Positions 21,573 through 31,823 of a stretch of 64,000 nt of DNA are shown here, piece after piece. The position numbers were made by a program, and so were the translations under genes. How positions within the stretch are numbered: the first letter of the stretch is position 1; each line of letters begins with the position of its first letter. The notes beneath the pieces are model-generated. The model ran no database searches, was not told the origin of the DNA, and saw only the letters and a program-made list of their open reading frames with translations. This DNA is from Dictyostelium discoideum (taxonomy: Eukaryota). The stretch is from the NCBI GenBank assembly GCA_000004695.1, contig CM000151.3, forward strand, positions 1,344,001 to 1,408,000, read 5' to 3'.

Positions 21573-21643
21573 GGGGAGATCCGAGAATCGAACTCAGGAC
21601 GCTACCACCCAAAGGTAGCATTATACCACTTAACTAATCTCCC
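21573..21643 (-). tRNA. tRNA-Pro (anticodon UGG), 71 nt.
   Basis: Manual fold of the minus-strand sequence GGGAGATTAGTTAAGTGGTATAATGCTACCTTTGGGTGGTAGCGTCCTGAGTTCGATTCTCGGATCTCCCC. The 7-bp acceptor stem is GGGAGAT/ATCTCCC. The D arm is GTTA-AGTGGTA-TAAT. The anticodon stem is CTACC/GGTAG with loop TTTGGGT (U33, anticodon TGG). The T arm is CTGAG-TTCGATT-CTCGG. The discriminator is C. Confidence 0.9.
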
Positions 21644-23730: not shown

Positions 23731-26700
23731 TTATTTTCTTGGTGGAATGATTGGTTTTTTAGTAAGATTGAGATCTGATGTTTGTGGTGAATGTGGTGGT
23801 GTTGCAGTTGGAGTTGTTGTATTTGTTGTTGGTGGAAATGGAACAGGTGAATTATTATTAATATTATTATTATTATTTACAGCAACATTAACAGCACTAC
23901 CTCCACGTGGTGGTAATGGCATAACTCTTGGTTTACCAGTTGGAGGTGTTGTAAAATCAGTATTGCTATTATTATTATTATTATTGGCAGATGATGGTAA
24001 TGAAAGATCATCTTTAGTTATATTATTATTATTAGTATTATTTTTTACAGAAGAAGGTACAAAAGAGGAATGTGATGTTGATGGTACAAATGTTGATGCA
24101 GATCTTGCACTATTATTTGGTGCTGCTTGTTTCAAATTTGATAATTTTGATGGGAAAGCAATTGGTTTAGCTGGTTGGTTTGTTGTTGTTGTAGTTGTTG
24201 TTGTTGTTGAAGAATTTGAAGTATTATTATTATTTATTAATGTTGATACAGGAGCAGGTGCTGTAAATGAACCTGGTTTAGGTAAGGGTCTTGTTGTTTT
24301 TGTTGGTACAGTATTATTATTTTCATTTTGTTGTGTTATTACAGGTTGAGAAGGAGTAGGAGTAGTGGTTGGTGTTACAGATAATGGTCTTTGTTGTCTT
24401 GATGGAATTGGTGGTGCTTGTTCAGTTGTGGCAGGTTGTTGTTGTTGTGGGGATGATGTTTGATTTGAATTTGTTATAAATGTTTTCTTTATAGTTGAAG
24501 TTGGTCTTGGTTTTGCAATTGGTGTTTGTGATGGTAATGGTGTTGAAGCTGAATCAACAATTGTTGGTGGTTCATCAATAACAACTGTAGTATTAGTAGT
24601 AGTGGTAGTAGGTGTAATTGTTGCAGAAGATTTTGATTTTGGTGGTGGAGGTGGTAATGGTTTTGAAGGAATTGCATGAACTGGTTTTGATTGTTGTTGT
24701 TGTTGTTGTAATGCACCAGCAGCAGTTTGAGTTCTATGTAATGATTTTGGAGAATCAGAAGAGATACCATTTGAAGAAGGATTAGTAGTTGCAATTGTAC
24801 TTCTTTTAATATGATCTAAAACTTTATCAGCATTTCTAGAATATTCTTCACGATGTGGTTTAATTAATTCATCCAAATCAGTGAACCATTCCATTTTTTG
24901 TTCGTAAGAATCTGCAACCAATGTGAATCTTCTACCGGTGGTACCAGGTTGACTAATTTCAAAGGTATTACAAAATGAACTACCTCTATTCTCCTCGCCA
25001 TCAACATTTGTAGAGGCAATGATGAATAGAGTTTCGAGACGAATTGATTTCTTATCTTTTTGAGTTCTCATAATAATATCATTAAAGAGATAATAATGCA
25101 TTCTACCAGAGATTTTATCTTTTTCCTCGGTTAATTCACCAAAAGTTGCTTCACGAATCAAGTAACGAGTTGGAGTGAAGAATACAAATTTCTCGGGTGC
25201 TTGTAATTTTTCATGAATTTTATACATTTTTTGATGAATTTCAGCTTTTCTTTTACTTTCATTAACAGAGAGAACCACCTCTTGAATTTCAGTGTATGCT
25301 TTCTCTAGATTCGCTAAATCCGGATGACCTTCACAACTATTCTTTATGAGTTCTCTTAGTAGTAATGGATATTTACAAAGACGTTGAACTGGTTTAATTA
25401 GAAAACTCTCTAAATTACATTGTCTACATTCTGTACTTGCTTGTTTCTCCTCTAGAAACTGTTTAAATGATGGTATCTTTTTACTACAACGTGCAATATG
25501 GTCGGCTGAAATGGTCTGATTTGCACAATAACCACTATAGATTTTCAAATATTTAAAGAAATAGATAAAACATGTACCAACTGTATGATTTGGTTTCTCA
25601 TCTGGTGCTTTTTGTAAGAGGTCACTTAACAACTCTTTATTTACATTCAATAGTAATTGAATATTTGAAAATATTATTGAAATATCTTTATCGGGTATAA
25701 TCTTTGACTCCTTTAATGGTGTCAATATAAAATTTACAATTATATTTAAATCTGCTATATAATCTTTCTCTGTATTAATAATTTCATTAATTACCATGTT
25801 TCTCATTTTATTTTCACCTTCTTCTTTCATTACATTTTGATGTATAACTTGTGCAAATGCTCTTGTAACTTTAATTACAACTTCTCTCTTTGTACCACCA
25901 TTTGGTGATGATATAACTGATGATCCTGATGATAATTCTGTTTTATCACCAACTAAATTATTTGTTGAATTATTATTATTATTATTTGTTGTTGTAGTAG
26001 TTGTACCACTATCTGTTCCACCACCAACATTTATATTCTCTGTAGATGGTGATGTATTTAATCCTCCACTACCTGTTGTTGTTGTAGTTGTTGTTATATT
26101 ACTTAAATCACTTGATGATATTGATTTTTCAATACCTTCACTATTAATTGGTGTTGGTGTTGATGTTCTACTACCATTACTATTATTATTATTATTTGTT
26201 GTTTCATTATTTTCAATATTTGAATCTGTTGTATTATTCTGTATTATATTTGCATCTTCTGAACTTATACTATTTCTATCTGTTGTATTATTCGCTAAAT
26301 TATTACTACTACTATTATTATTATTATTACTCTCTATAAATGATTTACTTGGTGATGAATCAATTTGAACTGGTGAAGTTGATCTTTCAATAATTAATGA
26401 ATTTGATTTTTTAACAGAGAATATCTTTGAAATTACAGATGGTTCTCTAGTTAATTGTACTTTAGTTGGTGTTGAATCTTTATCTTTTTGTTCAGTAATA
26501 TCTTCTTTTTCTTTTTCTTTTTCTTTTTGTTCCCTTTTAGATTTTTCTTTTTCTTCTTTTAATTTCTCTTTTTCTTCTTTTTGTTTTTGTTTTTCCATTT
26601 CTAAACGTTCCTTTTCATCTTTAATCTTTTGTTCTTTTTCTTCTTTTTGTTTTTGTTTTTCCATTTCTAAACGTTCTTTCTCATCTTTAATCTTTTGTTC

Positions 26701-27168
26701 TTTTTCTTCTTTTTGTTTTTGTTTCTCCATTTCTAATCTTTCTTTTTCCTCTTTTTGTTTTTGTTTCTTTAAATTCTTATCTTCTTTTGAATTCAATTTA
26801 TTTGATGATCCTTTTGATTTAGTTGGTGTAATCATTGAATCTGGTGTTGATGTTGCTGATGTTGGTGTTGTTGAATTTGTTGTTTCTGATTCATCTGTTG
26901 TTGATGTTGTTGCTGTTGTTGTTGTTGTTGTTGCAGTAGTAGTAGGAGAAGTAGTAGTGGCAGTAGTTGTGGTGGTATTATTTGATGATGATGATAATGA
27001 CGATGATGATTCTTTTTGTTGTTCATCTTCAATATTTAAACTATCCCTATTACTACTGATATCACTATTTGTATCATTAACAACTTGTTGATCTATGGCA
27101 ACTTCTTTTTTATTTTCTTCTGATTGTTCATCTATTGTTAAAACATATCGAAAAAATTTAATTTTCAT
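23731..27168 (-). CDS. RhoGEF (DH-PH) domain protein of 1145 aa, with a lysine/glutamate-rich internal repeat and a Pro/Thr-rich C-terminus.
   Basis: The DH signature block is VINEIINTEKDYIADLNIIVNFILTP...CRQCNLESFLIKPVQRLCKYPLLLRELIKNS. It is followed by a PH-like block (GRMHYYLFNDIIMRTQKD...FTLVADSYEQKMEWFTDL). The ATG at 27168 was verified. The opposite-strand ORF 23636..24349 is a shadow. Confidence 0.85.
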   Translation of the reverse strand: MKIKFFRYVLTIDEQSEENKKEVAIDQQVVNDTNSDISSNRDSLNIEDEQQKESSSSLSSSSNNTTTTTATTTSPTTTATTTTTTATTSTTDESETTNSTTPTSATSTPDSMITPTKSKGSSNKLNSKEDKNLKKQKQKEEKERLEMEKQKQKEEKEQKIKDEKERLEMEKQKQKEEKEQKIKDEKERLEMEKQKQKEEKEKLKEEKEKSKREQKEKEKEKEDITEQKDKDSTPTKVQLTREPSVISKIFSVKKSNSLIIERSTSPVQIDSSPSKSFIESNNNNNSSSNNLANNTTDRNSISSEDANIIQNNTTDSNIENNETTNNNNNSNGSRTSTPTPINSEGIEKSISSSDLSNITTTTTTTGSGGLNTSPSTENINVGGGTDSGTTTTTTNNNNNNSTNNLVGDKTELSSGSSVISSPNGGTKREVVIKVTRAFAQVIHQNVMKEEGENKMRNMVINEIINTEKDYIADLNIIVNFILTPLKESKIIPDKDISIIFSNIQLLLNVNKELLSDLLQKAPDEKPNHTVGTCFIYFFKYLKIYSGYCANQTISADHIARCSKKIPSFKQFLEEKQASTECRQCNLESFLIKPVQRLCKYPLLLRELIKNSCEGHPDLANLEKAYTEIQEVVLSVNESKRKAEIHQKMYKIHEKLQAPEKFVFFTPTRYLIREATFGELTEEKDKISGRMHYYLFNDIIMRTQKDKKSIRLETLFIIASTNVDGEENRGSSFCNTFEISQPGTTGRRFTLVADSYEQKMEWFTDLDELIKPHREEYSRNADKVLDHIKRSTIATTNPSSNGISSDSPKSLHRTQTAAGALQQQQQQSKPVHAIPSKPLPPPPPKSKSSATITPTTTTTNTTVVIDEPPTIVDSASTPLPSQTPIAKPRPTSTIKKTFITNSNQTSSPQQQQPATTEQAPPIPSRQQRPLSVTPTTTPTPSQPVITQQNENNNTVPTKTTRPLPKPGSFTAPAPVSTLINNNNTSNSSTTTTTTTTTNQPAKPIAFPSKLSNLKQAAPNNSARSASTFVPSTSHSSFVPSSVKNNTNNNNITKDDLSLPSSANNNNNNSNTDFTTPPTGKPRVMPLPPRGGSAVNVAVNNNNNINNNSPVPFPPTTNTTTPTATPPHSPQTSDLNLTKKPIIPPRK
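26560..26760. repeat. Three tandem copies of an 81-bp coding unit inside the RhoGEF gene, encoding KQKQKEEKEQKIKDEKERLEMEKQ x3.
   Basis: The protein repeat is visible in the ORF translation. The nucleotide unit ttctttttgtttttgtttttccatttctaaacgttc...atctttaatcttttgttc recurs on the plus strand. Confidence 0.7.
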
Positions 27169-29617: not shown

Positions 29618-30599
29618 ATGGGGTATGTCACACTCACTCATTATCACTCCACAATGTCACTATGTCTCTTTTTATATCAATACAAATAATAGATAAATGA
29701 TAAATGATAAAGATTAATTGAAAATTGTTAATAGATAATCATAATAAAGTTGTGTGGTAAAAAAGAGATAATCACACTCACCACTCAATCAATCATCACA
29801 AACACACACGCATCATGTATCACACATATATCATATCATAACACATACTCGCACGACCAATTTTAAACTCTACATCATACTAATATGAAAACAATAATTG
29901 AAAAAATAGTAAGCCAAATGGTTTAAAAACAGCTAGAAAGCTTAGAAATCACAGAAGAGTCCAAAGATGGAACGATAAACTCTACAAAAAGGCTCATTTC
30001 GGTACTGCTCTTAAAGGTTTGTATTTTAATGAAGAGAGTGAAAATTAAGAGAAAATCAAAACAATAAACTAACAACTTTTTTTTATTTCAAATATAGCCA
30101 ATCCATTCGGTGGTGCCTCCCATGCCTCTGGTATCGTCGTAAGCAGACTTGGTATCGAAGGTATGTTTTAAAGAAACAAAGAAACAAAAAATAATACAAA
30201 AACTAAAAATCACAAATACTAATTCTTTTTTTTATTATTTTTAAAAATACAGCCAAACAAGTAAGGATTTATTTTATTTAGGTTTAGGTTAAATTTTTTA
30301 ATATATTTTTAGGGGTTTATACTAATTTTTAATTATCTATTTTATTACAGCCAAATTCTGCCATCCGTAAATGTGTCAGAGTTCAATTAAAAAAGAACGG
30401 TAAAAAGATCACTGCTTTCGTTCCAAACGATGGTTGTTTAAATTACATCCAAGAAAATGACAAAGTTTTAGTTGCTGGTCTCGGTCGTTCAGGTCACTCT
30501 GTCGGTGATATTCCAGGCGTCCGTTTCAAGGTTGTCAAAGTTTCATCCGTCTCCCTCATTGCCATCTACCGTGGTATCAAAGATAAACCAAACGTATAA
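29618..30599 (+). CDS. rps23: 40S ribosomal protein S23, 143 aa, in 5 exons: 29618..29622, 29910..30016, 30098..30160, 30253..30260 (an 8-nt micro-exon) and 30351..30599.
   Basis: The spliced product is MG|[35 protein letters not shown]|[21 protein letters not shown]|AKQ|[82 protein letters not shown]. It is near-identical in order and length to human RPS23 ([51 protein letters not shown]...[17 protein letters not shown]...). Donors are GTATGT, GTTTGT, GTATGT and GTAAGG. Acceptors are AATAG, ATATAG, ATACAG and TTACAG. All phases were verified, and the total is 432 nt. Confidence 0.9.
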
Positions 30600-31028: not shown

Positions 31029-31823
31029 ATGAAAATTAATGGGAAAACATTTGTGGTGACAGGTGGAGCTTCAGGTTTAGGATTAGAGACAAGTAGACAT
31101 CTTAGATCATTAGGAGCAAATATATTTATAATGGATATGAATGAAGAAAATGGTAGAAAAGTTGTTGAAGAATTAGGTAGTGATAAAACTATGTTTTCAT
31201 CAGTTGATATAACATTGGAGGATTCTGTTAAATTATCATTAGAACATTGTTTAAAGAAATTTAAAGAAATTCATGGTGTTATAAATTGTGCAGGTGTTGC
31301 AGCTGCACAAAGGGTAATTAAAAGGGATGGTCAAGTTCATCCATTGGATTTATTCACTCGTGTAGTTATGGTTAATCTTATTGGTACTTTCAATGTAATT
31401 AGATTAGTTGCTGATATAATACATAACCAAAATCAACCATCATCAAAAGATGGTGGTGAAGAAGAGGAAGAGAAAGGTGTTTTCATTATGACTGCATCAG
31501 TTGCTGCATTCGAGGGTCAGGTAGGCCAATCTGCATATTCTGCAAGCAAAAGTGGTGTTGTTGGTATGACACTACCAATGGCTAGAGAATTTGCTACTTT
31601 AAAAATTAGAATCAATACAATTGCACCTGGAACATTCGAAACACCAATGGTGGAAATGTTACCTCAAGCTGCAATTAAATCAATCAATGAATCAATTCCT
31701 TTTCCATCTAGAATGGGTAAACCAAAAGAATTTGCTTTCTTATGTCAACATTTAATTGAAAATACTTATATAAATGGTGAAGTTATTAGATTAGATGGCG
31801 CACTTCGTTTATCAAAATTGTAA
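31029..31823 (+). CDS. 3-hydroxyacyl-CoA dehydrogenase type 2 (HSD17B10/SCHAD-type short-chain dehydrogenase), 264 aa. It is a single exon with C-terminal -SKL.
   Basis: The glycine-rich NAD site is TGGASGLGLETSRHL. Colinear identity to human HSD17B10 runs through NCAGVAAA, NLIGTFNVIRLVA, TASVAAFEGQVGQSAYSASKSGVVGMTLPMARE, TIAPGTFETP, PFPSRMGKP and NGEVIRLDGALR. The last three residues are SKL. Confidence 0.9.
   Translation: MKINGKTFVVTGGASGLGLETSRHLRSLGANIFIMDMNEENGRKVVEELGSDKTMFSSVDITLEDSVKLSLEHCLKKFKEIHGVINCAGVAAAQRVIKRDGQVHPLDLFTRVVMVNLIGTFNVIRLVADIIHNQNQPSSKDGGEEEEEKGVFIMTASVAAFEGQVGQSAYSASKSGVVGMTLPMAREFATLKIRINTIAPGTFETPMVEMLPQAAIKSINESIPFPSRMGKPKEFAFLCQHLIENTYINGEVIRLDGALRLSKL

Follow-up and report, generated by a model that had tools for sequence, protein, structure and literature searches.

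An 8-nt internal coding exon in the ribosomal protein S23 gene of Dictyostelium discoideum

Can eight nucleotides stand as an internal exon of their own in a gene as conserved as that for ribosomal protein S23, and if so, how would such an exon be spliced and how would it have come about? We addressed these questions at the rps23 locus of Dictyostelium discoideum, within a stretch of 64 kb that we refer to as the window. The window is very AT-rich, with a GC content of 13-32% in 2-kb bins.

The reading frame of rps23 and its shortest exon

The sequence at 29618-30599 (+) is the single-copy D. discoideum gene for the cytosolic ribosomal protein uS12 (S23). Its exons, introns and intronic motifs are listed in Table 1. 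Exon 3 closes with ..TCGAAG^gtatgt (^ marks an exon-intron boundary), and the micro-exon is preceded by aaaaatacAG and followed by GTaagg. We regard as a micro-exon any internal exon of at most 15 nt between an AG acceptor and a GT donor, and acAG^CCAAACAA^GTaagg is such an exon. The first-pass annotation had proposed the same segment, and on re-reading all of its coordinates and flanking sequences proved exact.

Table 1. Features of rps23 (positions in the window)
Feature	Position	Strand	Description
Coding exon 1	29618..29622	+	ATGGG (Met codon and the first two Gly bases); donor gtatgt
Intron 1	29623..29909	+	287 nt, phase 2; TACTAAT at 29878-29884
Coding exon 2	29910..30016	+	107 nt
Intron 2	30017..30097	+	81 nt, phase 1 in the Ala38 codon; ACTAAC at 30068-30073
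Coding exon 3	30098..30160	+	63 nt; ends in phase 1 (GAA G^)
Intron 3	30161..30252	+	92 nt, phase 1 in the Ala59 codon; donor GTATGT, T-rich tract, acceptor tacAG; one branch-site motif, TACTAAT (30217-30223), 30 nt from the 3' end
Micro-exon CCAAACAA	30253..30260	+	8 nt; with the G of exon 3 encodes Ala59-Lys60-Gln61 of uS12/S23
Intron 4	30261..30350	+	90 nt, phase 0 after Gln61; donor GTAAGG, acceptor tacAG; single branch-site motif TACTAAT at 30320-30326, 25 nt before the intron end
G-containing motifs of intron 4	30277..30315	+	TTTAGG TTTAGG TT = TTTAGGTTTAGGTT (30277-30290); TTTAGGGG (30308-30315)
Last coding exon	30351..30599	+	246 nt plus TAA; Pro62 codon first; preceded by ttattacAG

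In the spliced order, the end of exon 3 (...GGTATCGAAG) is followed by CCAAACAA and then by the start of the last exon (CCAAATTCTGCC...). The string expected with the micro-exon is GGTATCGAAGCCAAACAACCAAATTCTGCC, the junction string with the exon skipped is GGTATCGAAGCCAAATTCTGCC, and the peptide across the region reads LGIEAKQPNSAIR. The five-exon CDS has 432 nt and encodes 143 aa, which align with human RPS23 without a gap at about 80% identity; other eukaryotic RPS23/uS12 proteins are likewise of 143 aa. When 30160 is joined directly to 30351, the CDS shrinks to 424 nt, the frame shifts and the product ends in ...GIEAKFCHP and a stop. This reproduces the loss of frame that the first-pass annotation had derived from the phase 1 end of exon 3.

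Profile searches gave the same picture. The full product matched Pfam PF00164 with 150 bits (cutoff 22.3, E = 2.3e-44, residues 36-141), whereas the micro-exon-skipped product gave no match to this profile. The full product contains the KQPNSAIRK decoding-centre loop and is colinear with eukaryotic S23 over its whole length. In a search of solved structures, the best matches were 40S S23 chains (E = 2e-75), and none of the 55 eukaryotic and archaeal S23/S12 chains returned was the Dictyostelium sequence. The hydroxylated prolyl is Pro62 in human numbering, and its codon is the one with which the last exon opens. Ala59-Lys60-Gln61 sit in the decoding-centre loop, directly before this proline. 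The RPS23 prolyl residue hydroxylated by OGFOD1/Tpa1 is in the ribosomal decoding centre (PMC4543633). The absence of the micro-exon is so obvious because its eight nucleotides encode part of the most conserved stretch of S23.

We then enumerated all one- and two-intron GT-AG paths from exon 3 to the last exon, using 17 donors, 16 acceptors and introns of at least 40 nt. An open frame to the same stop was kept by 76 paths, and only one of them, 30160 / 30253-30260 / 30351, gave a full-length gapless S23, with the top score of 601 against the human protein. The second-best path scored 574 and deleted three residues; the other paths replaced or deleted the conserved core. A recursive (zero-length-exon) splice site was also considered and rejected, as eight nucleotides between the AG and the GT are needed for AKQ. 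From base composition, the pattern AG-CNAARCAR-GT is expected about 2-3e-5 times in the 190-nt interval. With both strands counted, it occurs exactly once in the 64-kb window, at the micro-exon.

Neither the frame nor the conserved S23 sequence can be kept without the eight nucleotides. This requirement, which the first-pass annotation had asserted, is upheld by the path enumeration, by conservation in ten loci and by the identity of the spliced protein to the deposited one (see below). We are highly confident that rps23 contains this 8-nt internal exon, presumably a constitutive one, flanked by two short introns that can each be recognized independently. Several independent lines support its inclusion in the mRNA indirectly.

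Conservation, splice signals and a proposed order of splicing

The ten-sequence alignment comprises the window and the loci L001-L009, of which L009 is from D. purpureum. All eight nucleotides of CCAAACAA (8/8) are invariant in it, as are the flanking AG and GTAA, whereas of the columns in introns 3 and 4, only 17% and 23%, respectively, are invariant. The arrangement AG^CCAAACAA^GT lies between exon 3 and the last exon in L001-L008, in D. purpureum (L009) and in D. citrinum (L018), and the introns flanking the micro-exon measure 58 to 97 nt in the Dictyostelium loci. Identity to the window is 91-100% in the exons versus 34-76% in the introns; the intron range leaves out L003, whose rps23 gene is identical to that of the window. 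Thus, the exon and its splice sites are conserved between introns that have diverged. D. purpureum differs from the window at 39 exon nucleotides, yet at only 2 residues when the printed protein sequences are compared. Given this and the 91-100% identity of the exons, the last exon must be under purifying selection in the frame set by the micro-exon. Throughout the genus, strong purifying selection acts on the micro-exon and its splice signals. Exon 1, ATGGG, is invariant in 10 Dictyostelium loci as well.

Introns 3 and 4 are each a complete splicing unit in length, branch site and pyrimidine tract. The motif ACTAAY occurs exactly once in each of the four introns, 25-30 nt from the 3' end, and ACTAA is invariant in introns 3 and 4 of 10 loci. 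The donor after the micro-exon is GTAAG(G/A) in 9 of 10 sequences and GTAAAT in D. purpureum; the other rps23 donors are GTATGT or GTTTGT. Intron 4 is also richer in G than intron 3 (13% versus 5%). The intron is otherwise A/T-rich. Its TTTAGG repeat, TTTAGGTTTAGG, and its motif TTTAGGGG (together 30277-30315, with GGGG) are largely conserved in the genus, with two copies of TTTAGC in D. purpureum. These TTTAGG and G motifs are a candidate intronic splicing enhancer for the micro-exon. The 14-mer TTTAGGTTTAGGTT has a single exact copy in the window, and we rejected the idea that it is a dispersed repeat. RNA folding of the region gave a minimum free energy no better than that of shuffled sequences (z = -0.24) and indicated no structural aid to splicing. 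A CCAAAC:GUUUAGG pairing that would bridge the micro-exon was rejected because it is lost in D. purpureum (TTTAGC), and because of the same z value.

Intron 1 is unusually long for the genome and CA-rich (19% C), with runs such as cacactcactc or cacaaacacacacgc. Within the genus, it has just 8% invariant columns. An Rfam search matched intron 1 to no family, and no snoRNA or other RNA family was found in any rps23 intron; one sub-threshold chance match fell outside the gene.

How could such closely spaced sites be used? Introns 3 and 4 would be recognized by intron definition, because they are short and each has its own GT donor, TACTAAT, T-rich tract and AG. They would most likely be removed consecutively rather than simultaneously, a route documented in plant micro-exons, since the acceptor of intron 3 and the donor of intron 4 lie just 8 nt apart and occupation of both at once is sterically unlikely. 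A strong donor (GTAAG) and conserved, G-containing TTTAGG repeats in intron 4 may assist splicing.

Unproductive splicing is known for some ribosomal protein genes of other organisms. By analogy, skipping of the micro-exon could be regulated, yielding an mRNA with a premature stop (…EAKFCHP, then stop) that would undergo nonsense-mediated decay and so autoregulate the level of uS12. The skipped mRNA does gain a stop six codons past the junction, the conserved TTTAGG repeats are a motif of intron 4 that is not a splice signal and could be a regulatory site, and the introns flanking plant micro-exons are prone to delayed splicing (PMC8831610). However, the splice signals are strong and ordinary (GTAAG donor, TACTAAT branch sites), and with intron definition the expected failure is retention of an intron, not skipping of the exon. 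We therefore consider regulated skipping unlikely. Inclusion of the micro-exon is presumably constitutive.

Micro-exons of vertebrates and insects can need intronic enhancers; for instance, the 6-nt exon of cardiac troponin T has a G-rich enhancer in its downstream intron. The rps23 exon resembles them in its small size, which leaves no room for exonic enhancers or for simultaneous binding at its two ends, and in the conserved G-containing repeats of its downstream intron. Most vertebrate and insect micro-exons, the neuronal alternative ones included, are alternatively spliced, regulated by tissue, flanked by long introns and recognized by exon definition. In contrast, rps23 is a housekeeping gene for a ribosomal protein, and its micro-exon is presumably included at all times.

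A closer parallel is found in the constitutive coding micro-exons of plants, which have at most 15 nt (Yu et al. 2022, PMC8831610). Like the rps23 exon, these are tiny, essential for the frame, part of a conserved domain and kept across species, and their flanking introns carry strong signals and T-rich or G-rich motifs. There too, steric constraints speak for splicing out the two introns one after the other (PMC8831610). The rps23 case differs from the plant ones (PMC8831610) in being amoebozoan, with very short AT-rich introns (90-92 nt), and in being already annotated, while the plant exons were mis-annotated. It is also apparently young: among the sampled genomes it is confined to one dictyostelid genus, and it cannot be traced to the origin of a kingdom.

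Origin of the flanking introns

We compared the locus with six other genomes: the dictyostelids Heterostelium album (L010), Cavenderia fasciculata (L011) and Acytostelium subglobosum (L012), and three distant eukaryotes, Limulus (chelicerate), Macleaya (plant) and Anaeramoeba (metamonad). The stretch encoding EAKQPNS is uninterrupted in all six, and a phase-1 intron at Ala59 or a phase-0 intron after Gln61 occurs in none of them (0/6). In Limulus and Macleaya, a phase-2 intron (VLEK^VGVE) is found 11 nt upstream instead. None of the three dictyostelids among the six has intron 2 either. A very short first coding exon is common to Limulus and Anaeramoeba (ATGG^) and to Dictyostelium (ATGGG^).

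As the stretch is uninterrupted in the six other genomes, parsimony favours intron gain. On the evidence of this small sample, three other dictyostelid genera and three distant eukaryotes, it was probably the lineage of Dictyostelium sensu stricto that acquired introns 3 and 4. A search of the relevant protein clusters for a group-3 dictyostelid homologue found none. Together, the two gains would have cut eight nucleotides out of a once-continuous exon. The rps23 micro-exon would then be a clean, datable case of an exon created when two introns were gained close together, in a species whose splicing works by intron definition. As the gene is essential and highly expressed and has many sequenced relatives, it lends itself well to studying how the cell copes with splice sites only 8 nt from each other.

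A fuller version of this history adds regulation to it. In this version, two introns were gained 8 nt apart in Dictyostelium s.s., among the most conserved codons of uS12 and beside the hydroxylated proline, the TTTAGG/G-run element of intron 4 would act as an enhancer that controls inclusion of the exon, and skipping would tune the output of uS12; we think this combination quite improbable. In a weaker variant, introns 2, 3 and 4 might stem from one another through site-specific reinsertion. Each of the three lies directly before CCAA (AAG^CCAAT at 30016/30017, AAG^CCAAA at 30160/30161 and CAA^CCAAA at 30260/30261). This shared context could reflect chance, given the Ala/Pro-Asn/Lys codons, or hint at a preference for insertion sites.

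The first-pass annotation offered a different origin. It noted that the micro-exon and the last exon both begin with CCAAA and read the micro-exon as a duplicated acceptor-proximal segment. In a fuller form of this idea, the micro-exon and its downstream intron would derive from a duplication of the acceptor-proximal part of the neighbouring intron together with the first exon bases. Among the four introns, introns 3 and 4 are indeed the most similar pair in their 3'-terminal 45 nt, in the window (26 versus 15-25) and in D. purpureum (33 versus 14-24), and with the exon bases included, the observed score was reached by only 7 of 500 shuffles. However, both CCAAA copies are needed for AKQ-PN and are already present in the uninterrupted sequence of relatives (for instance GCT AAA CAG CCA AAT in C. 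fasciculata), and the protein has no extra residues relative to human or to the relatives without these introns. The similarity of the introns by themselves is not significant (local score 26 against 22.6 +/- 3.7 in shuffles, with 99 of 500 reaching it). What they share is a branch site, a T tract and YAG, which are signals common to every intron, and their margin over the pair of introns 2 and 3 is a single point. Neither mark of a tandem duplication, excess exon sequence or significant similarity between introns, was found. The CCAAA pair is better explained as ancestral, contiguous coding sequence for Ala-Lys-Gln-Pro-Asn, and we regard a duplication as very unlikely.

One further intron varies among these genomes. 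A phase-0 intron after (I/E)EN, before D(K/E)VL, is found in H. album (L010, 2217/2315), A. subglobosum (L012, 2080/2209) and Macleaya (L016, 1109/1207). It is absent from Dictyostelium s.s., and Limulus has an intron one codon earlier. This looks like an old intron that was lost in the lineage that gained three new ones.

Deposited gene models and the neighbourhood of rps23

The spliced protein is identical to EAL71277.1 / RS23_DICDI (40S ribosomal protein S23 [Dictyostelium discoideum AX4]). As this sequence can be obtained only with the micro-exon, the reference gene model must already include it. The micro-exon is thus already known in the sense that it is built into the reference annotation and the UniProt entry, and it is a well-known kind of feature. 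In literature searches on Dictyostelium microexons and on Dictyostelium rps23, we found no mention of this particular exon.

The same 143-aa protein is encoded in eight further Dictyostelium assemblies (L001-L008), at one place per assembly among those shown. In the exact-protein look-up, it came from genome-derived models only, on genome contigs of >0.2 Mb and on no short transcript contigs. Exact spliced mapping of the D. purpureum and D. citrinum proteins on their own genomes also required the 8-nt exon. When metagenome contigs were scanned for GAAGCCAAACAACCAAATTCTGC, the spliced junction, five matches were returned, all of them uninterrupted S23 genes of other organisms with differing proteins.

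A gene without the micro-exon, in which the frame is restored by an alternative donor or acceptor, a programmed ribosomal frameshift or RNA editing, or else a decaying pseudogene with a chance match, would fit the general rarity of 8-nt exons but is hardly conceivable here, because no other GT-AG path gives the full-length protein, the exons are 91-100% identical in the genus with deposited proteins that match exactly or nearly in the frame that the micro-exon dictates, its 8 nt with AG and GTAA stay invariant amid fast-evolving introns against a chance expectation of about 2-3e-5, and the exact protein lies at one place per assembly shown.

The first-pass annotation had warned that gene predictors would easily miss so short an exon. 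This fear did not come true, as all recovered Dictyostelium models include it (AX4, D. purpureum, D. citrinum and seven assemblies besides L003). The models of relatives instead miss ATGGG, so the feared annotation error falls at exon 1 and not at the micro-exon. The models D. citrinum KAN0018653.1 ('MKYSKPNG'), H. album XP_020426781.1 (196 aa) and A. subglobosum XP_012756733.1 ('MSAKPQ') have wrong starts in which the ATGGG mini-exon is skipped. The sequence atcacaATGGG^gta is kept upstream in all three (D. citrinum L018, 1239-1243; H. album L010, 1599-1603; A. subglobosum L012, 1568-1572). As a matter of quality control, the analysis of the micro-exon shows that the reference rps23 model is right, and that the 8-nt exon should be kept in any re-annotation or read mapping done without micro-exon-aware settings. 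The micro-exon does not change any current view.

Two other models of relatives are unusual. The C. fasciculata S23 model (247 aa) has an HTH_3 domain ahead of S23, which suggests a fusion with the upstream gene. In A. subglobosum, a second S23 model, GAM23426.1 (146 aa), lies on another contig, and this species may have two rps23 genes.

The gene order around rps23 is conserved across Dictyostelium assemblies. Downstream, at 31029-31823 (+), an intron-free ORF of 264 aa occupies the position of a short-chain dehydrogenase (adh_short) in related loci, and an ORF of 1145 aa at 23731-27168 (-) occupies that of a RhoGEF-domain gene in some of them. The only tRNA gene found in the window is a tRNA-Pro (anticodon TGG) at 21573-21643 (-).
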